A DNA stretch of 64,000 nucleotides from a virus. Of the stretch, positions 967 through 20,030 are shown piece by piece; positions within the stretch are counted from its first letter, which is position 1; each line of letters opens with the position of its first letter. Position numbers and translations under genes: made by a program. The notes beneath the pieces are model-generated. The model was given only the letters and a program-made list of their open reading frames with translations, did not search any database and was not told the origin of the DNA. The stretch lies in IMG/VR virus record IMGVR_UViG_3300046167_000659, positions 2,608-66,607 of that record; one strand, written 5' to 3'.

Positions 967-1275
967 TTAGAACGGTAGATCATCTGCAGGTTCTGGCACT
1001 GCCGCTGCTTGTTGAGGCTGACCATCACGTGGCGCTGCTGCAACATTGTCTCCGTTAGTCCACACTACTTTGACATTACCTAAATAAGTCTTAGCTACTT
1101 TAGCTTCGCGTTCTTCTTTAGTCTGCTCAACTACAACTGGTCCTTGATTTCCGTAGTTATCTACTTCATCGTTTAATGTAATTGTGATAGGTAAATACTT
1201 ACCTTTTTTGCCAACATAAATTTTATCCTTTGGGATTTCATTTAAGTTGATACTTGCTTTAATAATACTTGCCAT
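967..1275 (-). CDS. Single-stranded DNA-binding protein (phage type)
   Basis: 102 aa, beta-rich, acidic C-terminal tail ADDLPF; adjacent to recombinase and exonuclease. Confidence 0.65.
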   Translation of the reverse strand: MASIIKASINLNEIPKDKIYVGKKGKYLPITITLNDEVDNYGNQGPVVVEQTKEEREAKVAKTYLGNVKVVWTNGDNVAAAPRDGQPQQAAAVPEPADDLPF

Positions 1276-1277
1276 AA

Positions 1278-2009
1278 TTATAGGGTTTTGTTAATAAAAT
1301 AATTTTCCGGTTTAAAGTCCGGGTTTTTAAAAAATAAATTGTAAGCTTCACTTGCTTGCTGAACTTTATCCTCTCCGTAAGAAAGGAACTTATCAGAACA
1401 GTCATATATACCTATTTGATGCGTGTTCTTATCTATGACCATAAAGATCATTTCATAACCAAACAGCTTTTGGTATATATAAGCTTGACTGTTGTAATTG
1501 TACTTTGATGCTGAATATTGAAACTTAGAAATATCTGCAGTTGTTTTTAGATCAATGATTAACTTCTCATCGTGATTAACAATATCTGCTTTACCTTTCC
1601 ATTGGTTTCCGAATATCTCAGCAATCCCAGGTACTTCGTACTCTACGTTTTCACCACGTATTAAATTTCTACAGATTTCATTAGACATCATTTTGTCTAC
1701 TAATAATTCTGTTTGATCTACTTCGTGTTGTAATAAGCAAAGTTCTCCGTCTGAGATCTCTTTGTACGCTTTGGTATTCCTAGTCGTCGTTTCTATTATC
1801 TTAAAATTCTTGAGCTTATGTGGTTCAAGAATAGCTGTATGAAAATAGCCTCCAACTAGGAATGCGGGGATTGGTTTCATTGGTTTCCCTAGCGCCAAAG
1901 GATTTGTTAATAAGGTCGAGATATCTGAATTACTTAGGAATTGTTTTCCAAACTTACCATAGTAATGTTCATCTTCTCTCAACTTGTTTAACTCATCTTT
2001 TCTCTTCAT
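1278..2009 (-). CDS. PD-(D/E)xK exonuclease (RecE/DUF3799-like)
   Basis: LSNSDI...G.YFH.AILEP, KGKADIV, IIDLKTT, Y..QAYIY motifs. Confidence 0.85.
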   Translation of the reverse strand: MKRKDELNKLREDEHYYGKFGKQFLSNSDISTLLTNPLALGKPMKPIPAFLVGGYFHTAILEPHKLKNFKIIETTTRNTKAYKEISDGELCLLQHEVDQTELLVDKMMSNEICRNLIRGENVEYEVPGIAEIFGNQWKGKADIVNHDEKLIIDLKTTADISKFQYSASKYNYNSQAYIYQKLFGYEMIFMVIDKNTHQIGIYDCSDKFLSYGEDKVQQASEAYNLFFKNPDFKPENYFINKTL

Positions 2010-2533
2010 TATAACGTTTTTAATGTTGCGGCGGGTATGTCGTACTTCTTTTTAATAGCTTCTAGACTACCGCCTGATTTGATGAAAGCTTTTGCTTTCG
2101 TTAATGCAGCTCCTTCTAACTTAGGTTTGACTGCGTTACCTTTACCGTGAGTGTTTGTTGCGTCACTGTCTGCTGTGTCATCGATTAGAAATAAATTTCC
2201 AAGCGCATATTTTTTAGCATAACTAGACGCTGATCCAAACTGCTGAGGTACGTTCATACCTTTTTGGTTTAAATCTACACCAACGATAGCATTAGCGTGT
2301 ATAGCATTGTCGCCGTCACTTATAGACGCAGTAGACTGCATCATAGGTAAAGGGTCAACACTAATGATTTGCTCATTGATTGTTACCGTAACTCCTAACT
2401 CTAACAGAAAGGGCTTTGTTGCTTCAAGGATGTCTTCGGCTGATCTGAAGTTGTATTTGCCGAAGGAGTTAAATCTACTTTTTTTCGATTTAAACTTTGT
2501 CTGGATCGTTGCCAGTTTCTCATTTAAGGTCAT
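2009..2533 (-). CDS. ERF-family single-strand annealing protein
   Basis: NSFGKYNFRSAEDIL and QQFGSASSYAKKYALGNLF.IDD..D.D motifs. Confidence 0.85.
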   Translation of the reverse strand: MTLNEKLATIQTKFKSKKSRFNSFGKYNFRSAEDILEATKPFLLELGVTVTINEQIISVDPLPMMQSTASISDGDNAIHANAIVGVDLNQKGMNVPQQFGSASSYAKKYALGNLFLIDDTADSDATNTHGKGNAVKPKLEGAALTKAKAFIKSGGSLEAIKKKYDIPAATLKTL

Positions 2534-2555
2534 ATGGTTTTTATTGGTATATTAA

Positions 2556-2583
2556 TATAATTACGTATTTTTTTTAATAATTA
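2556..2583 (-). promoter_or_regulatory. Putative class-II phage promoter TAATT-N13-CGTAATTATA
   Basis: Same spacing and -10-like box as the sites at 13057, 15169 and 28497; intergenic, upstream of the ERF gene. Confidence 0.5.
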
Positions 2584-2593
2584 ATCACTAAGC

Positions 2594-3352
2594 CTACAGA
2601 TAATCAATCACTTGCGATGGATCTACATTTTTTATAAGTATATCTATTGCTTCTTTTTTTATCTGTGAAACTCTTATATTTGCAGTAGCTACGCTTAGTC
2701 CTATGTACGATGCTATTTGTTTAGCAGACATTTTATCTTCATCTAAGCCATAAGACAATCTAACAACATCGTACTGCGCTTTAGATAAGTGCTGTTTCAT
2801 TAAACCTAAAATATAAATATTTATTAAGTTTATATTGTACGGCTCTGATTTGTCTTCTACTTGGTAAGCAAAGTTTTCTTCATTGTCTTCATACTTGTCG
2901 TAGCTTGAAAATATAGAATTGAAAAACATAGAAACCATTTTTTCATCGTTAGGTGATTTACGTATTTCATTAAGCTTGTGTTCTGGTATTTTTATATTAC
3001 CTCTGTTTATATCTATAGCTCTACGTATAGCTCCTTTTATTCTTTTAGAGAAAAAAGATTTTAGTGTTTTTTCAATGTCAGGGGAGTCAGCTAGTTTTTC
3101 TTCCCAGTCAAGTTTGTCTACAGCTAGAGTTAAGCCTTTGTTTCCTTCTTGAAGCAAATCGTTAATGCTCATGACACCTGATGCTTGTTGCGTGGTAGAA
3201 AACTTACGTGCTAGATTTTCTACAAGAGGCATAAACTTAATAATAAGCTCATCACGAGTATATTCGTCCCACATTTTACCTTCAAGATTTGCTATTGATG
3301 TCTTTACATCATTCTTATATCTTACGTAGTTTTGTACGTTATATTTCTTCAT
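2594..3352 (-). CDS. Phage-encoded sigma-70-family RNA polymerase sigma factor
   Basis: Region 2 (LVENLARKF...DLLQEGNKGL..AVDK...RIKGAIRRAI), IKIPEH, region 4 HTH (VVRLSYGL...SAKQIA...RVSQIKKEA). Confidence 0.9.
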   Translation of the reverse strand: MKKYNVQNYVRYKNDVKTSIANLEGKMWDEYTRDELIIKFMPLVENLARKFSTTQQASGVMSINDLLQEGNKGLTLAVDKLDWEEKLADSPDIEKTLKSFFSKRIKGAIRRAIDINRGNIKIPEHKLNEIRKSPNDEKMVSMFFNSIFSSYDKYEDNEENFAYQVEDKSEPYNINLINIYILGLMKQHLSKAQYDVVRLSYGLDEDKMSAKQIASYIGLSVATANIRVSQIKKEAIDILIKNVDPSQVIDYL

Positions 3353-3375
3353 AATCTTCTAGTTTTTCAAAAGCT

Positions 3376-3424
3376 TGTGACATTAGCCTGTTATCAGCAT
3401 AGTATATATTACCTATGTTTGCCA
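3376..3424. repeat. Dyad element copy A (degenerate right arm)
   Basis: TGTGACATTAGCCTGTTA...TACCTATGTTTGCCA, upstream of the sigma gene; left arm matches the other copies. Confidence 0.5.
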
Positions 3425-3445
3425 TCCACTCGTTAAAGTCTTGTT

Positions 3446-4066
3446 TCATAATTCTTGATTTAATAATTCTTTTTCTTTCTTAAGATCCATGCCCATATTT
3501 CTATGTATTGTACGAGCTGAACAGTCTAGTAACCCTGCTATTCGACCTATTGTTATTTTCTTACCCATATCGTGTATGTCTAACATGCACTGATAAATAT
3601 CATCTTCGTGTACAGTTTTAGATCGACCTACCATTTTACCTACAACACTTAATTTTTCTTCAGTTGTTAGTTTACAAAACTCTTTGAAGATAATCTTACG
3701 TTGTTTGTTACGCGGTGGGTGATCTAAGTCCATCATACTTACTTCATATACCATTGTGTATAGCAATGATTCATTAACAGTAAATGTTATAAAACCAGTG
3801 CGCTTGTTACATATATACTTAAATAAAGCTTGAAACTCATCTTGATCTAGTTGAGGGTTTAAATACCATAGAACAAGCATATGCCACTTAAGAGATTTAT
3901 ATGTTGTTATCTTAGCTTTGCTACGAAATAATTCATAGCATTCATATGTACCATCTTCATAGTAATCACCCCAGTCAAACGACTCTGTTGGTTGATCCGT
4001 GATCGGTGATCTACGGTATATGATACGTCTCTTGATAAGATAATCAAGGTTTCTATTGTGTGACAT
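3446..4066 (-). CDS. Putative DNA-binding/replication protein with C-terminal HTH
   Basis: C-terminal ITIGRIAGLLDCSARTIHRNM HTH; central helical region reminiscent of PriCT (inference). Confidence 0.55.
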   Translation of the reverse strand: MSHNRNLDYLIKRRIIYRRSPITDQPTESFDWGDYYEDGTYECYELFRSKAKITTYKSLKWHMLVLWYLNPQLDQDEFQALFKYICNKRTGFITFTVNESLLYTMVYEVSMMDLDHPPRNKQRKIIFKEFCKLTTEEKLSVVGKMVGRSKTVHEDDIYQCMLDIHDMGKKITIGRIAGLLDCSARTIHRNMGMDLKKEKELLNQEL

Positions 4067-4104
4067 AAGCCTGTTACTATTTATATTCGAGGGCTGTTGT
4101 CATA
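4059..4104. repeat. Dyad element copy B, overlapping the start codon of the HTH gene
   Basis: TGTGACATAAGCC-TGTTACTATTTATATTCGAG-GGCTGTTGTCATA; its CAT at 4064-4066 is the ATG of the minus-strand gene. Confidence 0.75.
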
Positions 4105-4198
4105 GTCCTCGGTTGGTATTAATTGTTGGTAAAAAATATGATTATTATTATAATCATTTTCTGTCTCCAACCTCATTTGTTCAAATAATTCTCTAGTT

Positions 4199-4673
4199 CT
4201 ACCCATTTGGTCTTGTTATTATTTCTTCACCTTTGTTTCTTACTGAAACTTTTTCAGCTTCATAATAATTCCAATACGCTGATATACTATCGCCTTCAAC
4301 TTTGTATTCATCAGGCATACACTGCGGTGGCTCTGTAAAGCCAGTATCAGGTATACCAGCTGGAGCAAACGCTAGAGCATCTCTGCATTTTTCAATACTA
4401 AGATGATACTTACCGTATCGTTTAGTATACTGCTTACCGATACCTAGCATATGCTCATACAACCAATAGTAGTTTGATCTACTAGATCTAGCCCATATTG
4501 TAGACGGGATGGTTTAAATGAGCTTTCTTATAAGGCACATTGTCACCGTTGTCGTGCACGTGATGAGCTGTACAAAGCATTTGAGCACACTCTAAGATCA
4601 TCTTAACTTTATGTTTATCGTAAAAGAATGTTGCAGCTTTGTATGGGTTATGGTGTAAATAAAATATATTCAT
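4199..4673 (-). CDS. Pyrimidine-dimer DNA glycosylase/endonuclease V-like protein (split by a probable sequencing frameshift near 4507)
   Basis: MNIFYL...DKH..KMILECAQMLCTAH, YKKAHLNHP, then PPQCMPDEYK...AYWNYY in the next frame. Confidence 0.75.
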
Positions 4674-4776
4674 TAGTATTTTTTATTATTAACTCTGTTA
4701 TAATGACAGTCAAGAAGTTGATGTACAACCTCTTCACTTATCATATTTTCGTTGTATAGTTTCCATATTAATTTAC

Positions 4777-5049
4777 TCATAATCCTGATTTTTGTAAGAA
4801 ATAGTTATAAACTTCTGGTATATGCTTTTTGTAATAAGGCTGTTCTGATGCAACCCATTTTTTAAGCTCTGCTTTAGACTTAAAGCCTGCACTATGATCC
4901 CAAAATCCATCAGATCTTTGTATAGTATTAAAACTTGGCTCTATGTCGTCTATAAAGTCGCCGACTGTCCAGCCTTCCCATATGTGTTTATCTCTATTTA
5001 CCATGTCTTGTATTGTATTAAAATATCTATCTGCTAGTGGATCATTCAT
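4777..5049 (-). CDS. Hypothetical protein (start probably at 5049, MNDPLADRYF)
   Basis: ORF; ATG overlaps the ligase stop; HIWEGWTVGDFI motif. Confidence 0.6.
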   Translation of the reverse strand: MNDPLADRYFNTIQDMVNRDKHIWEGWTVGDFIDDIEPSFNTIQRSDGFWDHSAGFKSKAELKKWVASEQPYYKKHIPEVYNYFLQKSGL

Positions 5050-5878
5050 AATTTCTAAGTGTTTTAAATAGCGGGTGTCTGTAAGAACCTGCTTGTGTTC
5101 GTTGAAAATAAGTAAAGGTAGCACGCTGACCGATATAGTCGTGTATATTGTCTAGTATATTTTTACGATCTGCAAAGTTGTAACCTTTACCGATAGGGCA
5201 GCCAAACATTATGCCATCATCATCTAGCATTAAGAACTTGCCAATAAGACCTGTAAACTTACCTTTGCCAGCTTCATAGCCTACAATAGTAGCTTCTGTG
5301 TCACTGAAGTCTTTGAACTTCTGCAAATTGTAAGAACGTTTATGCTCATACTTTTTGTTAAGACGTAACATAGAGCCTTCGTAACCTTGAGCTAAGTGTA
5401 CATTGTGTAACATTTTAGCTTCATCATAGCTATCAACAACTGTATTTTTAATAAGTGTCATTGTAGCTGCGATAGGCAAGTAACGAGTTAGCCAATTAAA
5501 ACGATCTTCGTAATTAACGTCGTGTAGCATATTGTGAATACCATCATACACATGATATTGTACAAGATGCTGCGCGTCACGCGCGTCCTGATCAGTTGGT
5601 TTTTGTTTTCTAACTAATGATATGATCTTTTCAAAATCGTCCTTTAGAGCATGATTATACAGCTCACCGTCTAGTATTACGTTAGGATGTTTTCTGAAAA
5701 AATCTGTTAGATCATACTTAATATGAGCTAGGTTTTTAAATTCTTTACCTGTACGAGAGTACGCACCGTCTTTAGTGAATATACAACGAACACCGTCAAG
5801 CTTAGGTTGTATGAATACTTTCTCGGACCAGTCGACAGGTTTTTTGTCTACTTTGTATGCGAGCATTGGTTTTATCAT
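5042..5878 (-). CDS. ATP-dependent DNA ligase
   Basis: Motif I QPKLDGVRC, LDGELY, YHVYD, GYEGSMLR, LQKFK; OB-fold end with RHPLF. Confidence 0.95.
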   Translation of the reverse strand: MIKPMLAYKVDKKPVDWSEKVFIQPKLDGVRCIFTKDGAYSRTGKEFKNLAHIKYDLTDFFRKHPNVILDGELYNHALKDDFEKIISLVRKQKPTDQDARDAQHLVQYHVYDGIHNMLHDVNYEDRFNWLTRYLPIAATMTLIKNTVVDSYDEAKMLHNVHLAQGYEGSMLRLNKKYEHKRSYNLQKFKDFSDTEATIVGYEAGKGKFTGLIGKFLMLDDDGIMFGCPIGKGYNFADRKNILDNIHDYIGQRATFTYFQRTQAGSYRHPLFKTLRNYE

Positions 5879-6153
5879 AGTTTATATTTGTTTTTTAAGT
5901 GTTTAATTTTATTTGCTACGATTCTTGCAGCTTCGTAATTTTCTTCTGTTTCTAGTCTGTCTAATGTTTCTTGAAGACCGTCAATCTCTTCGATTATAAG
6001 CTCGTCTTGAGTTATAGTGCCGAACTCAATATTGGTATTTTCATCTACCATTGATTGAATATCGGCCTTAAACTCTTCGTCATAAGCTTTTTGTCTTTCG
6101 ATTATCTTGTCTACAATAAGATCAGCCAACTTGCTCATTTCTTTATCTGTCAT
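5875..6153 (-). CDS. Hypothetical protein with UvrB/C-like C-terminal helix
   Basis: ENYEAARIVANKIK resembles the UVR motif. Confidence 0.5.
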   Translation of the reverse strand: MTDKEMSKLADLIVDKIIERQKAYDEEFKADIQSMVDENTNIEFGTITQDELIIEEIDGLQETLDRLETEENYEAARIVANKIKHLKNKYKL

Positions 6154-6387
6154 TTACGATACTCTTCTATAGTTATAAGTTGATAGTACGTGCTTGTTAA
6201 TAAACTTGCCTTTAGATTGAGATAATCTCAAGCCTTCGAATACAAAGTTTGGAACTTTAGTATAGCTGTAAGAACTACCGTTTGTATACGTCAAGGTTAG
6301 TTTATAGCTATCATACTCATAATCAGCCTTTTGTATAGCGGTTGAGTTGACTTCTACAGTCTGCATTGGTAAAATTAATTTGTTCAT
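6154..6387 (-). CDS. KTSC domain protein
   Basis: VNSTAIQKADY...L.LTYTNGSSYSY..VP...F..L..SQSKGKFINKHV. Confidence 0.9.
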   Translation of the reverse strand: MNKLILPMQTVEVNSTAIQKADYEYDSYKLTLTYTNGSSYSYTKVPNFVFEGLRLSQSKGKFINKHVLSTYNYRRVS

Positions 6388-6416
6388 AAGTTATTTAATT
6401 TAATTGTTAATAATTG

Positions 6417-6489
6417 TTGTCTCACTAGGGATCGAACCTAGACTCTTTGGTACCAAAAACCAACGTGTTGCCAATTACACCATGAGACA
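6417..6489 (-). tRNA. tRNA-Gln(UUG), CCA not encoded
   Basis: TGTCTCA acceptor pairs with TGAGACA; D arm TGGTGTAATTGGCAACAC; anticodon arm TTGGT-TTTTGGT-ACCAA; T arm CTAGG-TTCGATC-CCTAG. Confidence 0.93.
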
Positions 6490-6496
6490 TTTGTTA

Positions 6497-6537
6497 TTAC
6501 ATATATATTATCCGAAGACAATCGTATTTAGTTTGTA
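6497..6537 (-). promoter_or_regulatory. 41-bp early promoter-like motif, copy 1
   Basis: TACAAACTAAATACGATTGTCTTCGGATAATATATATGTAA, 7 nt upstream of tRNA-Gln. Confidence 0.8.
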
Positions 6538-6538
6538 A

Positions 6539-6802
6539 TTAATCTAGTAAAGCCATGTAAGCTTCAGGGTTATTTTGCCTGAACCATCTAACACCTTTTT
6601 GGTAGTCATCTATCATCTGATCGTTAACTCTATTAGAGGATCTTTCAAACAACATAGCACAACCCATCAAGAAGTCATACATACTAAGCTCTACATTATT
6701 TAATTCATATACCTCTCCACTGAAAGGATTTTTAACTGATTCACCTGTCTTATATAAAGATCCGTTGAACCAACTTGGTAATTTTTGTTTTGTTTCTGTC
6801 AT
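6539..6802 (-). CDS. Hypothetical phage protein
   Basis: 87-aa ORF in the operon; NPFSGE...WFRQNNPEAYMALLD. Confidence 0.7.
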   Translation of the reverse strand: MTETKQKLPSWFNGSLYKTGESVKNPFSGEVYELNNVELSMYDFLMGCAMLFERSSNRVNDQMIDDYQKGVRWFRQNNPEAYMALLD

Positions 6803-6807
6803 TTTAT

Positions 6808-6958
6808 TTAATTATTATTTATATAGTATTCGCAACCGTTATTTTCTATAGGTGTAGGCACGAAGTATGATTGGTATTCACTTGGCTTTAGCTGTGAAAC
6901 GATAGCAAGTATGCTTCGCCTCACAACCGTCTCCATTGCACATTGATATATCTGGCAT
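6808..6958 (-). CDS. Small Cys-rich protein (one-base frameshift)
   Basis: MPDISMCNGDGCEAKHTCYRFTA, then +1 frame KPSEYQSYF...GCEYY; span 151 nt = 50 codons + 1. Confidence 0.55.
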
Positions 6959-6960
6959 GG

Positions 6961-7473
6961 TTAACTTAATATATTATTTACTTCGTTTATTAATTCTGCT
7001 GTTGTTTTAGGTGTAGGTTCATCATACACATAGCCTTCGTCTTTTAGCTCGTCTATAACTTCTTCTTCGAATCTTTCAGCTAGATACTCGAACAACTGCA
7101 CGATAGCGTCGTCAATGAATTGCTGGTGAAGATCATCTACATATATAATGTCAGGGAAATCTTCAGAACCGTTAGAATATCTAATATGTTCTTCAAGGGC
7201 ATCGCCTAGATCGCTGTCATAATAGTATACGTTTTCGTTTATATTAATAGAATTCTGGTCATACGTAGCTATAAACACTGAATAGCCATCGGCTGTTGAC
7301 TCTTCGTATATATAGAAGTCTGCGTTGCTAGTCCATTGATCGGTGAATTCTACACCAAAATGTTTTAATACTGATTCTTTAGCTAGATCTTCGTCATTAA
7401 TCTGCTTTTCACCGAAGCCTTTAGCTTCTAGTCTTTCGTTAATTAGTTCGTCTGTGATTAGTTTTTTACTCAT
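6961..7473 (-). CDS. Highly acidic hypothetical protein
   Basis: 170-aa D/E-rich ORF in the early region. Confidence 0.7.
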   Translation of the reverse strand: MSKKLITDELINERLEAKGFGEKQINDEDLAKESVLKHFGVEFTDQWTSNADFYIYEESTADGYSVFIATYDQNSININENVYYYDSDLGDALEEHIRYSNGSEDFPDIIYVDDLHQQFIDDAIVQLFEYLAERFEEEVIDELKDEGYVYDEPTPKTTAELINEVNNILS

Positions 7474-7731
7474 ATTATTGTTTTTCTATTAATTCTGTTA
7501 TGTAATTCCATACTTGTAGTTCTTTTTATAACCTTCTAGTACTTGTTCAAACTCCTCATATGTAACACCTCCGATGTTACCTGTTCTCAAGTCTTCCTTG
7601 TAAGTTTCAACATCTAAGGTTAGTATTGTAACTTTTGCAAAAGCTTTATTGCTTGCTCTATTCTTAATATCTGCAAGCGTCCATTCGCACATAGCCATTA
7701 TGCTACGTTGTTTTCAAGTTCGAATACGTCT

Positions 7732-7947
7732 TCACCATAACGCCAGTTCGAATGATTCTCTGTCAAGGTATTCCATGTCAGAGAACACAAAGATGTTTAA
7801 CACTTGACGAACAGTTAAGTCGTCGTAGTAAAATAATTGAGTAAGCAAGAACTCAATATCGTTAGTCATATCAGGATATCTAACCTTGTTGTCTTCCAAG
7901 CCTTTTTTAAACTCGGGCTTTAGCCGAGATAATAAATTTGATCTCAT
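7732..7947 (-). CDS. Hypothetical protein
   Basis: 71-aa ORF in the early operon. Confidence 0.6.
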   Translation of the reverse strand: MRSNLLSRLKPEFKKGLEDNKVRYPDMTNDIEFLLTQLFYYDDLTVRQVLNIFVFSDMEYLDRESFELALW

Positions 7948-8260
7948 ATGTTTATTCTTCTATATATTTTGCAATTTCTTTACATGTTTCTAAAATGTCT
8001 TCGAAGTATAGATTATCACGTAGATCATCTAAGCCGTCTTCGTCTGAGTACATAATAGTACTTAGTAAGCTGTCTAACTCTTGATAAAGGTATTTCATAT
8101 TTAGTAAGTTTTAAATTTTTTAGCAATTTGGTAGACATCATCTACATCTTGTTCGTCGTAATTTTCATGGTTTTGTGACCAGTCTCGTAAGACATAGTAT
8201 ACAAAAGCGCAGTCTTGTTCTGTTAATCCTTTAATTTTCATAGTTATAATTTTTTATTTG

Positions 8261-8301
8261 TTACATTAATATTATCCATTAGTCGTCGTATTTTGTTTGT
8301 A
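8261..8301 (-). promoter_or_regulatory. 41-bp early promoter-like motif, copy 2
   Basis: TACAAACAAAATACGACGACTAATGGATAATATTAATGTAA. Confidence 0.8.
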
Positions 8302-8422
8302 CATCTCGCTTGTTGTTCTTATGTTGTCTGTTACTTTTACAATAAGGACAGCTTCCGTTGTTTCTGCAAGTTTTATCAAACCTTTTTGAACCAGTGTAGG
8401 GCTTTTTTTTAGTCCTGCTCAT
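8279..8422 (-). CDS. Small basic Cys-containing protein (47 aa)
   Basis: MSRTKKKPYTGSKRFDKTCRNNGSCPYCKSNRQH; below the ORF-track size cut-off. Confidence 0.6.
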   Translation of the reverse strand: MSRTKKKPYTGSKRFDKTCRNNGSCPYCKSNRQHKNNKRDVQTKYDD

Positions 8423-8426
8423 CTAA

Positions 8427-8699
8427 TTAATTAAGATCTGCTAGTTTATACTCGCCTGATTCTATTTTAACTCTAGTGTCTGCAATACCTTCACCTAAAA
8501 ACTCGTTACGATATTTACTAGTTGTACGTGAGTAGTCCCAATAGTAATCATCTAACGTTATTTTACCATTATTGTCACGTAAAGCAATAACACTGTCATA
8601 ACTTTGAAAATAAGTTCCGTAGTTCGTATATATAACGAACTGATTAGCTACAGGTCTTCCTGAGCGGTTGCTTGTCATTTGTCTAACTTTTGCTGTCAT
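8427..8699 (-). CDS. Hypothetical protein (true start probably 8699, MTAKVRQM)
   Basis: VANQFVI...FQSYDSVIA...WDYSRTTSKYRNEFLG; the upstream extension in the track overlaps the mini-tmRNA. Confidence 0.7.
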   Translation of the reverse strand: MTAKVRQMTSNRSGRPVANQFVIYTNYGTYFQSYDSVIALRDNNGKITLDDYYWDYSRTTSKYRNEFLGEGIADTRVKIESGEYKLADLN

Positions 8700-8711
8700 A
8701 TTTAATTGTTT

Positions 8712-8792
8712 TAGTGGAGGTGGAGAGATTCGAACTCTCTTCCGCAATAGTTCCATATAGGCTTTCTATCACGTCAATACCAGGTCACCCCC
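8712..8792 (-). ncRNA. Mini-tmRNA: tRNA-like domain only, no tag reading frame
   Basis: GGGGGTG/CACCTCC acceptor with G3-U70 and A73; unpaired D loop ACCTGGTATTGA; helix CGTGATAG/CTATTGCG closed by a 15-nt loop; GAA linker; T arm GAGAG-TTCGAAT-CTCTC. Confidence 0.8.
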
Positions 8793-8795
8793 GTG

Positions 8796-8871
8796 TGTGC
8801 AGTCATTTCCTAAGCGCGGTGCACCACTGTCGTTAGACCGGTGCGCGTCTTTGTTATTTATTCGCTGCACA
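8796..8871 (-). ncRNA. Putative structured small RNA (array element 4)
   Basis: Closing stem TGTGCAG/CTGCACA; internal hairpin GCACC-G-GTC-TAAC-GAC-AGT-GGTGC. Confidence 0.55.
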
Positions 8872-8875
8872 TTTG

Positions 8876-8963
8876 TAACTAGTGGGGGAATCGAACCCTC
8901 ATACTCGTCAGTAGTAATGAACTCTGGTTAATTTAATAACTCCTGTTGCATCCACACCTAGTT
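8876..8963 (-). ncRNA. tRNA-like RNA without canonical D or anticodon arms (array element 3)
   Basis: AACTAG/CTAGTT acceptor-like stem, T arm GAGGG-TTCGATT-CCCCC, 3' ACAA. Confidence 0.6.
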
Positions 8964-8966
8964 GCC

Positions 8967-9039
8967 GCTAGAGTCGGCCTCTGAGAGCAAACGCAGAATT
9001 TATTCGTCGCGATTGCCCTGATTAAACCTCTCATCTAGC
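8967..9039 (-). ncRNA. Putative structured small RNA (array element 2)
   Basis: Nested stems GCTAGA/TCTAGC, TGAGA/TCTCA, GCAATCGC/GCGTTTGC. Confidence 0.55.
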
Positions 9040-9044
9040 TATTT

Positions 9045-9115
9045 ACTACCTTAGAGGATCTTCGTTAGCTTAACAATTTAAAATACCATTGCCGTACTAA
9101 TCCCTCCACAGTAGT
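9045..9115 (-). ncRNA. Putative structured small RNA (array element 1)
   Basis: Nested stems ACTAC/GTAGT, GAGGGAT/ATCCTC, TTAG/CTAA, CAAT/ATTG. Confidence 0.45.
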
Positions 9116-9303
9116 TACTTACGCCGCCAAGCTCTGTGCACTGATGCACTTACTTCTTGGCTGACTATTTGTATTGTATTGCCTGTCTTGTGCTCGATAA
9201 TAGGTACATACGAATATGTTTGAGTTGTCGAGTGCTCAACACACGTTTTATAACCTAATTCCAACCTCACAGGGTGTACTTCATTTCCACATTTACAATA
9301 CAT
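9115..9303 (-). CDS. Small zinc-finger-like protein
   Basis: CKCG...RLELGYKTCVEH; first gene after promoter copy 3 and directly upstream of the RNA array. Confidence 0.65.
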   Translation of the reverse strand: MYCKCGNEVHPVRLELGYKTCVEHSTTQTYSYVPIIEHKTGNTIQIVSQEVSASVHRAWRRK

Positions 9304-9322
9304 AGTTTATTATTTTTATTTG

Positions 9323-9363
9323 TTACATATATATTATCCAGAGATAATCGTATTTTGTTTGTA
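9323..9363 (-). promoter_or_regulatory. 41-bp early promoter-like motif, copy 3
   Basis: TACAAACAAAATACGATTATCTCTGGATAATATATATGTAA. Confidence 0.8.
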
Positions 9364-10257
9364 ATAATCAATATCTACAAGATCCACTTGTTCTAGTAAT
9401 TTAATCACAGTTTGGTAGACAGTGTAATCTCTTAGATTATAAAAGTCATCACCGTTTAAATCATAGTCCGCTATGGACCATTCCACCTGTTCTTTCAGGG
9501 TTTCTAGTATAACATCAGCTTGATACTGAGCTATCTCATCTATTTCGTTCATTTTACTCATTTTACATTTTTCTTTACCCAGTTAATAATATATTCTAGT
9601 CTATCCATTTCGTTTGGAATTAGTATACGCTTGTAATTGTATATAATTGTATCGATGTTACCTCTACCGTGATGATAACCTGTCCAGTATTTGTTTATAG
9701 ATTTAGTTTTTTTGTTTATTTGATACAATCTATCAAGGTTAAAGTTGTTAATTCTTATATAACCTGATTGATAAGACTTTATTTCACGCCCATCATTTAA
9801 TAAGAACGTAGATGTTCCGTTTTTGTTTACTTCTATTAGTTTCATAGTTTATTTGTTTTATAGTTTACTTTGTAATCATTCCATCGAGCAGTGTAAGCGA
9901 ACGACTTGCCTTTAGCGAAAGAGCTTTTTTGCCTTGTAACCACGGCGTTCCACTCTTTATCAGTCAGTCCGCTACACACCTCGTGTTGGTGCTTGAGTCT
10001 ATGCCCTCTTGCACGATTTCTTCTCGCGTCTATCATAGTTTGACACGCTTCCTTCATATTCATATGGCGAAAGGGTTTTCAGTTTTCTCGACAAAAGTTA
10101 GACCTTTGTAGTTGAACCACTCAGTGATACCTTCTTGGTCTTTGTCTTCGTTGTAGATAAACGCGAAGCGTTTTGGTAACTCGCCAACAGGATAACCTTT
10201 GTAATCTTGGCCATTAAATCTGATGGTTGTTGAGTTGATAAATTTAATTTTTTTCAT
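9334..10257 (-). CDS. Four overlapping small hypothetical ORFs (9334-9561, 9558-9845, 9842-10063, 10060-10257)
   Basis: 4-nt ATGA-type start/stop overlaps indicate a coupled operon. Confidence 0.7.
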
Positions 10258-10274
10258 AGTATATTATTTGTTTG

Positions 10275-10315
10275 TTACAGTATTATTATCCAAAGATAAT
10301 CGTATTTTATTTGTA
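10275..10315 (-). promoter_or_regulatory. 41-bp early promoter-like motif, copy 4
   Basis: TACAAATAAAATACGATTATCTTTGGATAATAATACTGTAA. Confidence 0.8.
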
Positions 10316-10449
10316 TTATTGATACATCTCTTGTTGCCATAAAGGTATTTCAGAGTTATATCTCATCGCCCATTCACGTTCGATCGCTTCGATCTCTGCT
10401 AATTTAATCTTATAGTGACTAAATTTACGCTTAGTTCTTTTAGTTTTCT

Positions 10450-10860
10450 TCATGGTTTTAAGATATTTAATATTTCTCGCCAGTTAGAGTGTTTACCTAC
10501 GCCGAACTGTATTAGTTCGCCATCAAATTCACTTGCGCCGTTTACTGTTCTGTCGTCTATTAAATAGTCGCCACGTAATAGATTCTTGTGATTAGAAAGT
10601 ATTAATCGTTTGTAAGCGTTATTACCTAAGTATTTACTCACCCATTGGCGCTTATGCGTCCAAGAAATAGGCATATTCCATGGAGCGGTAGATAAGATGT
10701 ACACATCATACTTATCTGACTCACATAATTTATTAAAGGATTCCACTGCATCTTTCATTGGTGGAAGGTCTTTAAATATACTTTGATACCAACCTTTTTT
10801 ATTAAGTGTAGGTTGTAAATCAACGAGTACACCGTCCATGTCTATATATATTGTTTTCAT
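10450..10860 (-). CDS. 5'(3')-deoxyribonucleotidase (NT5C, HAD family)
   Basis: IYIDMDGVLVD, YILSTAPW, KNLLRGDYLIDDR. Confidence 0.9.
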   Translation of the reverse strand: MKTIYIDMDGVLVDLQPTLNKKGWYQSIFKDLPPMKDAVESFNKLCESDKYDVYILSTAPWNMPISWTHKRQWVSKYLGNNAYKRLILSNHKNLLRGDYLIDDRTVNGASEFDGELIQFGVGKHSNWREILNILKP

Positions 10861-11047
10861 ATTAATCCGAGTTTTTTGTTAGTATATTGTTTTATCATAA
10901 TGACTCATCCACTCAATATTACTTAAGCTAAAACCTTTAGATATTATAAAATCTATTAAATCTTGATGTCTTTCATATTGGTCTTCTTGTATCTCATATT
11001 GGTGTACATGTCCCATTGAGAAATCTAGTATTGTTATATATTTCATA

Positions 11048-11260
11048 TTAATCGCCTTTATAGTTTAATGTTTTATAGAATTCACCTGCCGCTTTGTTAT
11101 TTGATTCTTCAAGCGACTTGTAATAGTCTTCGTTTTTTAGTTGGTCATCTCGCCACTGATTTACTTCATCGAGCGTACCGAACTTAGTAGTGTATCGTAT
11201 AGTACATTTGTAAGTTTCACGCTCTGGAAAGTGTGGATTGAAGTGTTTAATTATTCGCAT
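11048..11260 (-). CDS. Hypothetical protein
   Basis: 70-aa ORF with AACTATG start context. Confidence 0.6.
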   Translation of the reverse strand: MRIIKHFNPHFPERETYKCTIRYTTKFGTLDEVNQWRDDQLKNEDYYKSLEESNNKAAGEFYKTLNYKGD

Positions 11261-11410
11261 AGTTATTTAGTTTAGTAGAAGTCGTAGTAGATATCGATTA
11301 CTTTAGATTTTTGTTCGTCAGTTAATTTATCAAAGTCAGTATCGAAAAGATTCCACGAGATTTTTAGTAGAGTATAAGATTTAGTACACATAGTTATTTG
11401 TTTTTATTAG

Positions 11411-11451
11411 TTACATTTATATTATCTAAAGATAATCGTATTATATTTGTA
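11411..11451 (-). promoter_or_regulatory. 41-bp early promoter-like motif, copy 5
   Basis: TACAAATATAATACGATTATCTTTAGATAATATAAATGTAA. Confidence 0.75.
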
Positions 11452-11525
11452 GACATTGGTGGAATCGAACCACCTCACAAAGTAGAGCTCACGTAGTCAA
11501 AATGCAGAGTGAAACCGTTATGTCT
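11450..11525 (-). ncRNA. tRNA-like RNA without canonical D or anticodon arms
   Basis: AGACAT/ATGTCT acceptor-like stem, perfect T arm GGTGG-TTCGATT-CCACC, 3' ACAA. Confidence 0.6.
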
Positions 11526-11581
11526 TTATTTCTATCCAGTTTGATGTCCCACTTCATGGTTCGGATAGTCACCATATTTAT

Positions 11582-11836
11582 TTATTTGTTTATAAAGTGT
11601 CCGTCAAGTGCGAGTTGACAGTCTTCTAATGTATCTTTTAACGCCTCAGTAGTTACATTACCGTTTAAGTATTGGCGTAGTTCATCTATAGTAGATAAAA
11701 CTTCAGTTCTAGTTTTAGAATTTATTTCTTTTGTTACTGTTAAGTTTACTTGTATGGTATGGTTTCCCACAGAAGTATATTCTATTTTATTATTGTTTAA
11801 ATAGTTTAGTAAGTCAGTTCTAGTATCATTGTACAT
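11582..11836 (-). CDS. Hypothetical protein; C-terminal half paralogous to 12426-12557
   Basis: NSKTRTEVLSTIDELRQYLNG. Confidence 0.7.
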   Translation of the reverse strand: MYNDTRTDLLNYLNNNKIEYTSVGNHTIQVNLTVTKEINSKTRTEVLSTIDELRQYLNGNVTTEALKDTLEDCQLALDGHFINK

Positions 11837-11854
11837 AGTTATATTTTTTATTTG

Positions 11855-11895
11855 TTACATATATATTATCCAATAAGAAACGTATTTAGTTTGTA
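11855..11895 (-). promoter_or_regulatory. 41-bp early promoter-like motif, copy 6
   Basis: TACAAACTAAATACGTTTCTTATTGGATAATATATATGTAA. Confidence 0.8.
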
Positions 11896-12115
11896 TTTTT
11901 AAATTACCACTTAGTTTCATTCGGAGCGAAACCATCTTCAAAGTAATTAGATAGTTTAAAGTTACTGATTCTTAATACAATAGTGTGTATGAATTTTCTC
12001 ATATTAGTTTTATTTATAGATTTTAAAAGTATATTATTTGTTTAAGTGTAAAAATTAGTTAGAGGGTATAATACTACACCTCTAAGTGTGTGACAGTATG
12101 TCATGACAAGAAGTA

Positions 12116-12343
12116 TTATATAACTTCTTTGTCACGAAGAATTACTGGTACTGAAGTAGACGATGTATAAGATTTATACTTTTCGAAACAGTTCATAGTT
12201 TCAAGTTTACTTTTCATAATTTCATATACTTTATCATGATTATAAGTAAATGATTTTCCATTTTTGAAAGTTACTTCAATGATTTGATTTTTTCCAATTA
12301 AGGATTTTCTTACGACGAATCGTTTTGATTGTAAATTTGACAT
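12116..12343 (-). CDS. Hypothetical protein
   Basis: 75-aa ORF directly after promoter copy 7. Confidence 0.7.
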   Translation of the reverse strand: MSNLQSKRFVVRKSLIGKNQIIEVTFKNGKSFTYNHDKVYEIMKSKLETMNCFEKYKSYTSSTSVPVILRDKEVI

Positions 12344-12379
12344 AGTTATTATATTTAAGTTATTATTATTATTTATTAG

Positions 12380-12420
12380 TTACATTATTATTATCCAATA
12401 CGTATCGTATTTAGTTTGTA
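12380..12420 (-). promoter_or_regulatory. 41-bp early promoter-like motif, copy 7
   Basis: TACAAACTAAATACGATACGTATTGGATAATAATAATGTAA. Confidence 0.8.
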
Positions 12421-12425
12421 AATTA

Positions 12426-12557
12426 TTATAGTTTATTTATTAATTCGTCGAGCGTTATTTGTAAACTACTTTTAGTTACGAAGCCGTTTAAGTATTGGTT
12501 TAATTCGTCGATAGTAGACAGTATTTCGATACGAGTTTTAGAATTTAGATTTTGCAT
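12426..12557 (-). CDS. Small protein (43 aa), paralog of the C-terminus of 11582-11836
   Basis: MQNLNSKTRIEILSTIDELNQYLNGFVTKSSLQITLDELINKL. Confidence 0.65.
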   Translation of the reverse strand: MQNLNSKTRIEILSTIDELNQYLNGFVTKSSLQITLDELINKL

Positions 12558-12593
12558 AGTTATTTTATTTAGTTATTATTAGTATTAATTTGC

Positions 12594-12634
12594 TTACAGT
12601 ATTATTATCCGATTATACTCGTATTTAGTTTGTA
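12594..12634 (-). promoter_or_regulatory. 41-bp early promoter-like motif, copy 8
   Basis: TACAAACTAAATACGAGTATAATCGGATAATAATACTGTAA. Confidence 0.8.
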
Positions 12635-12656
12635 ATATTTATTCTTTATTAAAAAC

Positions 12657-12704
12657 TGTGACATTAGGGTATTAAGCTAAGTATAGTAAGGGGCTATTGT
12701 CACA
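12657..12704. repeat. Dyad element copy C
   Basis: TGTGACATTAGGG-N22-GGCTATTGTCACA. Confidence 0.8.
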
Positions 12705-12742
12705 CTTTTTATTCGGTTCATAGTTGTTAGTTTGTTTGTTAC

Positions 12743-12783
12743 TTACATTATTATTATCCAATGCAAACCGTATTACCTCTGTA
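12743..12783 (-). promoter_or_regulatory. 41-bp early promoter-like motif, copy 9 (most divergent)
   Basis: TACAGAGGTAATACGGTTTGCATTGGATAATAATAATGTAA. Confidence 0.7.
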
Positions 12784-13008
12784 TGATACCTAAAAATATA
12801 GAGTGAATTTAAAAATAGTAGTAGCATCTCGGGCCCGATATAGCTGAGGTGGTATCGAAACCAGGGGCTAAAATCGTGGGAATTCGGTGGGGGCTGGGAA
12901 AAACAAATGGGTTTTACTAAAATATTACGGAAGAGAGAAGGAGGGTGCAACACAAAATCCCTATATATCTAACAAAAAATTTTTTACTATATTTTTTTTT
13001 ACAAATAA

Positions 13009-15541: not shown

Positions 15542-17109
15542 ATGGAATTTAACAACCCTAGTCAGATTGTAAAAGATTTGACATTTGGCGATAAAGCCAA
15601 TAGTAAAATAATGACAGGCGTCGAAAAATTAACAAGCGCAGTAAAAAGTACGTTAGGTGCTTCAGGAAAATGCGTAATATACGAAGATGCCTTAGGTAGA
15701 CCGGTAATAACAAAAGACGGTGTAACCGTTGCAGAAAGCGTAGTCTTAATAGATCCGGTCGAAAATATAGGTGCAACCTTAATAAAGGAAGCCGCAAGCA
15801 ATACAGTTAGAGAAGCGGGGGATGGTACAACAACAGCGACTGTCTTAGCGCACTCATTATTAAAAACAACAACAGAATCAGAGCATGAAGAAACGGCTAG
15901 AAGCATTAAGAGCGGCATTGAAAAATGCAGCGAAAAAGTTATGGTTTATCTTGATAAAACCAGCATACCAGTTAAAGGGGAAATGCTTAAAAGCGTTGCT
16001 ACAATTAGCTGCAACAACGATAAAGAACTTGGAGCCAAAATTGGCGAAGCATACGAAAAAGTTGGCAGAGATGGAGTCGTTTTAATGGAAGAGTCTGATA
16101 CGAATGAAACTTATGTAGAATTCGTTGATGGCGCTCAAATTGATTCCGGTTTAAAGTCTCAGCACTTAGCAACCGACAAAGATAAACTTACATGTACTTT
16201 AGATAACCCGTACGTGCTTATAATAGGATCTACAATACCTAACATCCGTAAGATACAAAGTGTCTTAGAGTTTATTATAAAAGAAAAGAGACCACTACTT
16301 ATTATAGCAGACATAGATCAACAGCCTTACGCTACTTTAGTAGCTAACAAGGTTAAAGGTAACATTAAAGGTCAATGTAATAGATCCTCCAGGGTTTGGG
16401 ACCTACCAGGTTAGACTCCATGGAAGATTTAGCTTTTTTAACAGGGGCTAAGCTTATAAACGAGGAGCTAGGTGATGACTTAGATCTTATCGAGCCTTCT
16501 GTACTAGGTGAAGCCGTTAAAGCTGTTACTGATAATAAATCAACAGTAATGCAGGTTTACGACAAAGGTGAAGAACTGGAAGATAGAATTACACATGTTA
16601 AAGAACAGATTAAAGATGAAAAAAATGGATTCTTTAAAATGAAACTAGAACAAAGGCTAGCTACTTTAGCAGGCACTGTAGGTATTGTAAGAGTTGGGGC
16701 TGATTCTAAGGTAGAGTTAAAAGAAAAGAAAGATAGAGTTGAAGATGCAGTTCACGCTACTAAAGCAGCCTTGAAAGAAGGTATTGTTGCCGGCGGTGGT
16801 GTAGCACTCTTAAATGCAGCAAACAACATTAAGCCTAAAAACAAAGGAGAGGAATTATTGCTCGAAGCTATAAAAGCTCCTTATAAAACTATATTAGACA
16901 ACGCTGGGCTTGACTTTCAAGACCTGAATAAAAAAGGCTGGGGTATAGATGTAGTAACAGGCAAGCCAGTGAACATGGTCAAAGCAGGTATTATAGATCC
17001 GGTTTTGGTTACAAAAGCGGCGCTGAAAAATGCTGTGAGCGTAGTTAACACAATTGTGTCTGCAGATTGTATAATCAGTAATAAAAGGTTAGACGATGCA
17101 AGCAATTAA
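15542..17109 (+). CDS. groEL: Chaperonin GroEL (split by a probable +1 sequencing error near 16368)
   Basis: ITKDGVTVA, AGDGTTTATVLA, KEKKDRVEDAVHAT, GIVAGGGVAL, GIIDP; no GGM tail. Confidence 0.95.
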
Positions 17110-17792: not shown

Positions 17793-19581
17793 ATGAAAGC
17801 TAACAACCCAATTACAGCTAGAGTACAAGCTGCATTCAAAAACTTAACCACACCAACCAACCAAGAGGTTACATTAAACGCTGATGGTTCAGGAGGTCCT
17901 ATTGTAGCTCCAGACGGAAGAGTTGTTAATAAACCAAAGAAAAAACAAAAGTCTTCTACAGAAGATTGTGGATGTGCTGGTAGTGCTAAAGGTGCTGCGG
18001 CTCCTGCAAAAAACTATAAAAAAGGTTACTACGGAAAATAATGGCGTTTAAACTTAAAACTAAAGGCGAAATATTCGGGTACAACGAAGAGCTTTCTGAA
18101 TGGGGTAGACCTGTTTTTGAAAAAGACTTAAAAGGTAACATTATGGCTGAGGCTAATAATGATGGTACAACTTTCATAGATAAAAGCTTATCACCTTCTC
18201 AAAAGAAAGAGGCTGTTGAACACGAAAATGTGCATCACTGCCAAATGAAGCAAGGTAGATTACACTACGACGACAATATGGTAACTTGGAAAAAAGATAC
18301 TAAGTCGCCTTCTAGAGTGTATAAGAGAGATCAAGGTAATTTAATAGCTATGGATTCCGGTCAAAAAGATGTCGAGGGCGGCAACTTTGAGTGGGAAGAC
18401 GAAGCTTACTCATAACAACTAACAACTAACAATAATGAACAAAACAAAACCAATCACGCAGAAAGCTAAAGAATCAGTCGCTGCTAACTGTGATTCGCCT
18501 AATAAATATATGGCTGCTTTAGTGAATGATTTAAAAGGCATGTACCAGAGTAAAGGATTTATAGATGCAGGTAAAGAAATAGGTAAAGGAATAGACAGAG
18601 CTACTCAACTTTCAGAAGACTTCACAGGAGGTATAGGTAGAAAAGGACCAAACGATTAAAACTAATAATATGTATACACCAATAACTAAAAGAGTAAAAG
18701 TAGCTCAACATAAATCTTCTATTGCTAAGCAGACTACTGAAACAGCGCAGACCGCTGATCCATCAGGTAATTTACAATCTACAACAGGAACCGGAACAGG
18801 CTCAACCTACACTCCCCCTGTGGCATATGAAGGAAAAGACGCTTGTGAGGATCCCAATTCAGCTGCGTGCAAGAAATGGACATCTGAGAACGAAAGATGT
18901 AAAGACCCTAACGCGGAAAATTGTAGTGGCTTTAGAAAACATGAAACCGGAACAACTACGCCTGGAAATGCAGATTTTGAATCTAAACCCGTAGTACAAG
19001 ACGCTAAACCAGCTTCAAGAATTGATTTAATGGGACCTCAAGAACTTAGAGGTAATACACGTGCTGGAAAAGTAGCTGCAAGAAACGTGAAAAAAGCTTC
19101 TAAGCAACTTAAGAGAATGCAAAAAAAGTTCAAGGCTGGTAAAATTAATCAAGAAACTTTAACAGCTTATGAAGACGAGCTAAAAAACACTGTTGCAAGA
19201 AGTAAAAACATAGGCCAACAAGCGACTGGCATGCGTAATAGGTATTTGAGCCAAACCATGGATTATGATCGCGATCTAACTAAGGGTAGAGAAGCTGGAC
19301 CTGTTAAAGCCCCAGAAGGAACACAAACAGAAGACGAGTTTAAATCTAGATTTAAAAAAGAGCTAGGTGTTAGCAGCGACTCTACTGCTCCGCAAACTAC
19401 AACAACTCCTACGTCAAGCTTTAGTGCAATGGCATCACAAAACGGCGTTAGCTACAAGCCTATCACATTAGATAATGGAGCTTTGTTTCAAGGATTAGAT
19501 TCATCAATATCAGCTTTTGGTAATAAAGTAAAAAAAGGAACAGTGTCTTTCAAAATGAAAGGCTACGGATCTAAAATATAA
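17793..19581 (+). CDS. Four small/low-complexity basic proteins (17793-18041, 18041-18415 with HExxH, 18435-18659, 18670-19581)
   Basis: Contiguous ORFs; three share an N-terminal PIT[AQK][RK] motif; 18041 has AVEHENVH. Confidence 0.7.
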
Positions 19582-19584
19582 ATT

Positions 19585-19878: not shown

Positions 19879-19889
19879 AATATAATAAA

Positions 19890-20030
19890 ATGAAATCAAA
19901 AGGATTAGGGGATTCAGTAGAAAAATTTACAAAAGCAACTGGTATTAAAAAAATTGTTGAAACAGTAAATCCCGACTGCGGCTGTGGTAAAAGAAAAGAT
20001 AAGTTAAATAAAATATTTCCATATAAATGA
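19890..20030 (+). CDS. Small protein GLGD...DCGC (copy 2 at 22617-22757)
   Basis: MKSKGLGDSVEKFTKATGIKKIVETVNPDCGCGKRKDKLN; below the track cut-off. Confidence 0.6.
   Translation: MKSKGLGDSVEKFTKATGIKKIVETVNPDCGCGKRKDKLNKIFPYK

Follow-up and report, generated by a model that had tools for sequence, protein, structure and literature searches.

Nearly all bacteria have trans-translation, a pathway that is also a drug target, and to our knowledge it is largely unknown how phages deal with it. A tmRNA reduced to its tRNA-like domain (TLD) is an RNA of a kind that is already known and was described once before, in a phage: Hudson et al. (2014) list "Mycobacterium phage DS6A (TLD only)" (PMC4131195), and in the passages cited from the tmRNA Website/database this molecule falls in the class "Standard, no CDS" (PMC11915505). 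A DS6A-like TLD-only molecule is stated in these sources to inhibit tmRNA strongly in E. coli (PMC4131195, PMC11915505, citing Mao et al. 2009), and the relevant passage of the former adds that it does so "whether or not chargeable" (PMC4131195). The excerpted text of the 2025 tmRNA database paper gives 79 phage sequences and nine "Standard, no CDS" forms (PMC11915505), and a close relative of the RNA described below may already be in that database. The same excerpts report frame-less tmRNAs in mitochondria and two plastids, the mitochondrial ones being retained together with SmpB (PMC11915505). From laboratory work, the portions cited here report a truncated tmRNA that was crystallised on the ribosome with SmpB and EF-Tu (PMC8363625), as well as peptidyl transfer to a TLD-only tmRNA (PMC3895274).

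The locus considered here lies in a 64,000-nucleotide stretch of viral DNA (the window, by which we mean the whole of that stretch), part of a 66.6-kb IMG/VR virus record that is possibly incomplete. An earlier note, made from the letters alone, had read a short segment of it as a tmRNA with an alanine-type TLD and without any mRNA-like domain. Sequence, strand and coordinates are as it gave them (minus strand, 8792 to 8715, then CTA). Since the note missed DS6A, the novelty of the molecule is below that which it implied. Window 8715-8792(-) is a real RNA gene, and very probably a functional TLD-only tmRNA gene. Its parts and surroundings are as follows.

8715..8792, minus strand: mini-tmRNA (TLD-only tmRNA), mature length 78 nt (RF00023, 64.1 bits; family model R1, whose training set includes the window, 83.3 bits; MFE fold; conserved island in 21 loci)
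8786..8792, minus strand: 5' strand of the acceptor stem, positions 1-7 including G3 (pairs with 8716-8722)
8774..8785, minus strand: stemless D-loop region, positions 8-19, with G12 G13, U16, G18 and A19 (aligns to the conserved 5' part of RF00023)
8743..8773, minus strand: helix 2a (8 bp, positions 20-27 with 43-50) and 15-nt apical part (28-42) (fold)
8740..8742, minus strand: linker G51 A52 A53, in which G51 and A52 face A19 and G18 (tandem G-A; RF00023 alignment)
8723..8739, minus strand: T arm, 5-bp stem and 7-nt T loop (fold)
8715..8722, minus strand: 3' strand of the acceptor stem with U70, and discriminator A73 (scan with positions 70 and 73 free)
8712..8714, minus strand: 3' trailer CTA, CCA not encoded (sequence)
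8427..8699, minus strand: downstream ORF of 90 aa, phrog_21575 (unknown function), no overlap with the RNA gene
about 970-12950, minus strand: block of small ORFs and DNA metabolism (exonuclease, Erf, sigma factor, DNA ligase, tRNA-Gln; PHROG)
plus strand: structural block (terminase, portal, virion proteins, tail fibres, holin, endolysin; PHROG)

In the Rfam scan the tmRNA model RF00023 matches window 8712-8792(-) at 64.1 bits (E 1e-22; gathering score 47 bits). The alignment spans model positions 1-374 with both ends paired to the gene, while 11 nt stand for 304 internal positions and pseudoknots PK1-PK4 are missing. tmRNA is the top match of the tRNA clan at these positions, and no tRNA match is retained. 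The earlier note had expected Rfam models and ARAGORN alike to match the two ends; RF00023 does so, but ARAGORN has no tRNA or tmRNA call at 8712-8792(-) at its default and 90% thresholds, the tRNA-Gln at 6416-6489(-) being its only call in the whole window. When the threshold was lowered to 80%, 13 calls appeared in a 7.5-kb early region, among them three permuted tmRNAs with implausible tags, and these were taken as noise. Models of permuted and organellar tmRNAs (RF04321, RF01849-51, RF02544) have no match in the window, either at the gathering score or at E up to 1. An ordinary tRNA-Ala, the alternative that the note had named, is ruled out by the lack of an ARAGORN tRNA call, the rank of tmRNA as best in its clan and a fold without a 7-nt anticodon loop.

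The minimum free energy fold is identical to the centroid fold (-26 kcal/mol; z -2.24; 2 of 200 shuffles fold equally well), and it agrees with the structure that had been drawn. From 5' to 3' it consists of a 7-bp acceptor with G3-U70, 12 unpaired nt, the 8-bp helix 2a, a 15-nt apical part in which a 2-bp CC/GG stem is possible, a 3-nt linker, the 5-bp T arm and the discriminator A. In the RF00023 alignment G18-A52 and A19-G51 fall on the tandem G-A pairs of the model, at the base of helix 2. The TLD is complete, with G3-U70, A73, the T arm, a stemless D-loop carrying GG, and the G-A pairs. The mRNA-like domain, that is, a resume codon and a tag reading frame with its stop, is absent: the two strands of helix 2a are separated by just 15 nt, where a full tmRNA has about 300 nt of pseudoknots and tag frame, and ARAGORN finds no tag peptide.

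The gene behaves as a discrete unit among its closest relatives. We aligned it, with 340 nt upstream and 120 nt downstream, over 21 related loci; at least 20 related viral contigs carry the gene. Conservation covers 78-79 nt, from the first G through the discriminator, and ends sharply at the gene ends; the flanks on both sides are mosaic and frequently unrelated from locus to locus. Within this clade the T stem and helix 2a each come in two versions, all of them fully paired through compensating changes. Downstream of the gene the relatives carry varying ORFs, with tRNA genes in two of them (L017 and L027), and genes other than the phrog_21575 ORF occupy its place. In the window the PHROG match of that ORF starts at residue 21 if the ORF is read from ATG 8756 (109 aa) and at residue 2 if it is read from ATG 8699; the start is most likely ATG 8699, outside the RNA gene. 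In one contig the RNA gene and the downstream ORF are separated by about 330 additional letters.

The stretch is contained in seawater and marine metagenome runs of many studies (14 rows with at least half of its words). In two of the four metatranscriptome runs compared, contigs are colinear through the whole gene, which shows its presence in RNA libraries, where such libraries can hold DNA and their contigs carry no strand or end information. One of these contigs (X15, record 2) covers 8711-8884, and another (X16, record 11) covers 8710-8963 with 3 differences; a third run (X17) gives patchy cover over 8327-8936, and the fourth (X18) gives none there. Both colinear contigs break off at 8710-8713, where the gene has its 3' end, and these breaks fit the mosaic flanks. 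Positions 8710-8713 are a recombination or insertion hot spot, at which the two RNA-library contigs and many relatives turn to unrelated sequence. A longer form of the tmRNA was found in none of the 21 related loci. Assembly deletion of a full-length tmRNA, which the earlier note had named among the outcomes that would refute its reading, is excluded by the short form shared among these loci and by the RNA-library contigs that run colinear through it.

The short form extends far beyond this clade. A strict pattern, in which only the tmRNA-type positions of the two ends were fixed and 20-50 free bases were allowed between them, returned 112 IMG/VR contigs with 84 unique sequences of 63-90 nt. 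Applied to 185,579 prokaryote species genomes (596 Gb), it found 8 stretches only, all of them in MAGs; the pattern specifies about 24.5 bases, and by our own arithmetic ~0.07 chance matches are expected in a collection of that size. A looser pattern added at least 75 further viral loci, and 72 of those listed match R1, the family model built from the 84 IMG/VR sequences, at E ≤9e-7. In total, at least 184 IMG/VR contigs carry a mini-tmRNA gene, and more exist. The E-value of the RF00023 match, together with covariation in a family that counts 184 or more viral loci, excludes a chance match. R1, in whose training set DS6A is not included, finds the DS6A gene at 28478-28557 of JN698994 with 58.9 bits. 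The DS6A gene sits in the gap between gp33 and gp34, has no feature in the GenBank record JN698994 and scores below the Rfam tmRNA cut-off.

Diversity in the family is considerable. Single-linkage clustering of 93 sequences at 80% identity gives about 59 clusters, of which the window's holds 15 sequences. The G+C content of the contig stretches examined is 27-69%, with a median of 43%. The 3' trailers among 114 family rows include CTA (33), CCA (32), CAA (13) and CGA (8). CCA is thus often not encoded in the family, nor is it in the tRNA-Gln of this phage, and addition by the host is presumably needed. On one unrelated viral contig of the family a type II hammerhead ribozyme (RF02276, 44.1 bits against a threshold of 37) lies 1.3 kb from the mini-tmRNA, at L007:974-1038(-).

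In an Rfam scan of 20 loci related to the strict pattern, 17 pass the RF00023 cut-off as two-end matches, and L019, L072 and DS6A miss it. ARAGORN calls a tmRNA in only 3 of the 112 strict-pattern contigs. Phage tmRNA surveys based on ARAGORN, such as those cited here in part (PMC9004378, PMC7162821), would probably miss the class. When the 84-nt gene was compared by blastn with 50,697 phage records, T-arm-sized pieces alone were found, the best in Maribacter phage Panino. We found no report of many mini-tmRNA genes in phages or viromes, only ARAGORN surveys of full-length and two-piece phage tmRNAs, as far as their cited passages go (PMC9004378, PMC7162821), subscription literature being beyond our scope. 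The breadth of the family appears not to have been described previously in the literature searched.

Two analyses of covariation were made. The first, an anchored count over the 84 unique sequences, used no structure model. In helix 2a, pairing at the seven variable pairs holds in 73-84 of the 84 sequences, with 4-6 pair types at each, and at the eighth in 52. The T stem is paired in all 84, and acceptor pairs 5 and 6 in 81, with four pair types (GC, CG, AU and UA). The pattern had left the 3' partners of G18 and A19 free, and A stands opposite G18 in 84/84 and G opposite A19 in 71/84. The second analysis used A2, a model-fitted alignment of 91 distinct rows, which leans towards the model and in which kinship inflates shuffle tests; with these reservations, 96.3% of its cells are paired against 66.2% in shuffles (0/500 reach this value), and covariation scores 0.739, where shuffles give 0.154 and slid partners no more than 0.125. 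In A2, 13 of 20 pairs vary on both sides. Helix 2a is 91.5% paired with 7 of its 8 pairs varying on both sides, 4 of the 5 T-stem pairs covary, and the two gene ends covary with each other. The anchored count and the slid-partner controls argue the same way as A2, for an RNA structure that appears to be under selection. Covariation among homologs, which the earlier note had asked for, is therefore at hand, and its structural reading agrees with the RF00023 match, the fold and the family alike.

These results bear on whether the locus could be a relic, be it an attP-type ssrA fragment, a decaying pseudogene or a full-length tmRNA shortened in assembly. Fragments of ssrA in prophages are known, according to the passages cited (PMC9004378, PMC4131195). 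Here, however, both gene ends are present and covary, no integrase family was found among the 84 ORFs scanned with PHROG, the strict pattern is nearly absent from prokaryote genomes, and the short form recurs in many independent contigs as well as in RNA-library contigs. A relic is contradicted by this evidence and is extremely improbable.

The determinants of alanine identity were examined by repeating the strict pattern with position 70 and the discriminator left free. The same 112 loci were returned, and U70 opposite G3 as well as A73 is present in 112/112. A single transition at G3-U70 would yield a stronger G-C pair. That this pair is never G-C in the 112 loci suggests selection for charging by AlaRS. 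The conservation of G3-U70 could in part stem from recent descent from host tmRNAs.

The gene shares a 400-nt non-coding stretch with two other elements. Element B, at 8874-8963(-) and 80 nt upstream of the mini-tmRNA, is a second tRNA-like RNA. Its acceptor-like stem measures 6 bp and its T arm, with canonical T loop, 5 bp; it also includes an inserted arm that is hypervariable (0-50 nt), a hairpin of 3-4 bp whose loop reads GACG, and the tail ACA, and it lacks an anticodon arm. Neither Rfam nor ARAGORN calls it. It is present in 15 of the 21 related loci, with 99.5% of cells paired and 4 of 15 pairs varying on both sides (0/500 shuffles). Element B as a general partner of mini-tmRNAs was considered and rejected, its model R2 being strong in 15 of 95 sources, all from the window's clade. 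Between the two RNAs lies a 7-bp stem (8865-8871 with 8796-8802, minus strand), seen by eye in 8 of the 21 loci, which encloses a segment wholly different among relatives; its strands are invariant, with no covariation by which to judge it. This stem could be a processing site. A third tRNA-like candidate occupies an ORF gap at 11450-11525(-), combining an acceptor-like stem of 6 bp with a perfect T arm and an ACA tail; it has no recognisable D or anticodon arm, scores 13.6 bits with R1 and is not called by ARAGORN. This candidate and element B contain the two occurrences of the T-arm motif GGTTCRANTCC in the window, where 0.08 are expected.

Such surroundings could be taken to mean that the RNA has a role unrelated to trans-translation, as a tRNA-like processing signal or punctuation, as a decoy for tRNA-acting enzymes or defence nucleases, or as a primer-like RNA. 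In its favour are the non-coding stretch shared with element B and the conserved stem, and a tRNA gene within 1 kb in 29 of the 112 loci. A generic tRNA mimic, however, would need neither the tmRNA-specific D-loop nor the tandem G-A pairs nor G3-U70, all of which are kept across about 59 clusters, and we consider such a role very unlikely. The more particular proposal of the earlier note, a decoy for host RNase toxins, found no support.

The PHROG scan of the 84 ORFs gives two blocks, one per strand, and the mini-tmRNA gene sits in the minus-strand block, which is taken to be early. A scan for sigma-70 promoters and terminators found nothing adjoining the gene; the consensus used is perhaps unsuited to the inferred host. 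In its terminase the phage shares 62.7% identity with the uncultured freshwater-spring phage MW202828, 37-44% with podophages of Flavobacterium, Maribacter and Cellulophaga, and 32% with Tenacibaculum phage Gundel_1. From this terminase similarity alone, the host is probably a member of the marine Flavobacteriia. No mini-tmRNA was found with R1 in seven named relatives (Panino, MW202828, Flavobacterium elemoF, Cellulophaga phi18:3, phi19:3 and phi38:1, and Tenacibaculum Gundel_1), which indicates that the gene is dispensable for that phage group. The best scores there are 25, 22.6 and 20.9 bits. The match in MW202828 overlaps an Rfam tRNA and the one in Panino a permuted tmRNA, and phi38:1 has a further match.

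The plus strand has peculiarities of its own. At 19529-22255 and 22256-24982(+) 2,727 bp are directly duplicated in tandem, with a single mismatch; the duplication contains four ORFs including a holin family and is either a very recent event or an assembly artefact. The genes for GroEL, for the portal protein and for a large virion protein (phrog_14478) are broken up, so that in each case 2-4 consecutive ORFs match successive parts of the profile (15542-17109, 32029-34456 and 39829-43713, plus strand); MW202828 has all three as single genes, and the splits may be frameshifts or sequencing errors. An ORF of 2,435 aa at 49592-56899(+), within the structural block, includes a polynucleotide-kinase-like stretch at residues 1988-2159 (phrog_12810, phrog_505).

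With regard to function, we favor, with a probability of about 0.6, an alanylated, SmpB-bound RNA that competes with host tmRNA at stalled ribosomes and does not tag. This reading starts from the observed anatomy, conservation, covariation and restriction to viral sequences, and its steps would run as follows. The RNA would be cut from a longer transcript by tRNA-like processing, a host enzyme would add CCA, and host AlaRS would charge it with alanine by way of G3-U70 and A73. Host SmpB would bind its elbow. SmpB (PF01668) was not found in the possibly incomplete 66.6-kb record, so a partner from the host would be needed. In E. coli tmRNA the nucleotides G19, U17 and A334 contact SmpB, as given in the cited portion of the structural work (PMC8363625), and these probably correspond to G18, U16 and A52 of the window RNA. 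EF-Tu would then bring the RNA into ribosomes stalled at mRNA ends, where it would take over the nascent chain and have neither resume codon nor tag frame on offer, and it would compete with host tmRNA for both SmpB and stalled ribosomes. Nascent chains would gain one alanine and no degradation tag, and release would be left to other factors, ArfB for example, or to drop-off with subsequent action of peptidyl-tRNA hydrolase. Among genomes of the FCB group (Fibrobacterota, Chlorobiota and Bacteroidota), smpB is present in 1,913/1,956 and arfB in 1,426/1,956, according to the excerpt cited (PMC11633108). The net benefit to the phage might be inhibition of the host pathway, shielding of its own stalled chains from tagging, or faster recycling of ribosomes. 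The earlier note had likewise proposed sequestration of SmpB or tag-free entry into stalled ribosomes, which matches what the available passages report on the DS6A-type molecule (PMC4131195, PMC11915505).

The main rival to this mechanism is a pure SmpB sponge, an RNA that would titrate host SmpB, and perhaps AlaRS or EF-Tu, and so shut down trans-translation with no need for charging or ribosome entry. The features of the elbow are conserved, as a sponge would have them, and the passage of Hudson et al. counts for it as well (PMC4131195): with tmRNA inhibited "whether or not chargeable", charging is perhaps dispensable. Yet an RNA that served to bind SmpB and nothing else would need neither G3-U70 and A73, kept in 112/112 loci, nor an acceptor stem that covaries to remain paired, and for this reason we regard the sponge as unlikely.

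The same conserved charging determinants would also suit a more benign role, in which the phage adds rescue capacity while mRNA is being degraded by host shut-off or defence RNases, and the chains stay unmarked for proteolysis. This is the role assumed for the mitochondrial tmRNAs without reading frame, which are retained together with SmpB (PMC11915505, in the passage cited), and the frequency of arfB in the FCB group, which contains the inferred hosts, would fit it too (PMC11633108, as excerpted). Yet without a stop codon the RNA itself cannot release a ribosome, the sole cited experiment on such a molecule reports inhibition and not help (PMC4131195, PMC11915505, same passages), and the observations made here fit rescue and competition alike. 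Beneficial rescue is, in our judgement, distinctly unlikely, and we retain competition at the stalled ribosome as the preferred mechanism.

On the evidence of the family as a whole it can tentatively be proposed, as a view somewhat short of even odds, that TLD-only tmRNAs form a large virus-restricted RNA family, kept alanine-chargeable, and act as a general phage tool against host trans-translation that ARAGORN surveys have overlooked. Such a tool would stop the tagging and degradation of phage chains stalled by defence RNases or by tRNA depletion, or would recycle ribosomes untagged. The interest of the locus lies mainly in the fact that its kind proves common, virus-specific and, to judge from its sequences, still chargeable. 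The role of tag-less tmRNA, in phages and in mitochondria, becomes testable across many hosts for two reasons: the gene is carried by no fewer than 184 uncultured viral contigs and hardly ever by cellular genomes, and the alanine identity pair is never lost in the family. A natural RNA of 78 nt with apparent features for charging and SmpB binding, and without a tag template, is moreover a ready-made probe and a possible natural inhibitor.

Among known systems the DS6A RNA is the most similar. Both molecules are phage-borne, about 80 nt long, in one piece and without a tag frame, and their parts stand in identical order: a G3-U70 acceptor, a stemless D-loop, a helix 2a capped by an A-rich internal loop and a mini-hairpin, and the T arm. 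They differ in setting, DS6A being a siphophage of mycobacteria with 70% G+C, whereas the RNA of the window has 48% G+C and belongs to a marine phage whose terminase resembles those of Flavobacteriia phages. They differ also in the length and sequence of the D-loop, and DS6A lies outside the strict pattern and under the Rfam cut-off. With the standard bacterial tmRNA (RF00023) the window gene shares the acceptor, G3-U70, A73, the GG of the D-loop, the G-A pairs, the base of helix 2 and the T arm, but it has no resume codon, tag frame or pseudoknots, and its CCA is not encoded. Full-length and permuted phage tmRNAs (those of Bxz1-type mycobacteriophages, Bacillus phage G, Melnitz and Maribacter phage Panino) are likewise parts of trans-translation encoded by phages, yet they keep the tag reading frame and the mRNA-like domain. 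The Panino tmRNA is a permuted two-piece gene at about 27590-27798 of PP540027 (L116:1531-1739; RF04321, 62.2 bits against 47), where the record annotates a 333-nt SsrA overlapping tRNA-Asp and tRNA-Thr.

The tmRNAs of jakobid and oomycete mitochondria and of two Mallomonadaceae plastids (about 65 bp) also consist of little beyond the tRNA-like domain and presumably act together with SmpB, as far as the cited passages describe them (PMC11915505). These organellar forms are mostly permuted two-piece genes (RF02544), whereas the window gene is a one-piece phage gene. Engineered TLD constructs are practically the same molecule as the one described here, with helix 2 closed by a loop, and they bind SmpB and EF-Tu and accept peptide, according to the portions cited (PMC8363625, PMC3895274). 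In contrast to these laboratory truncations of bacterial tmRNAs, the gene of the window is natural and evolutionarily maintained.
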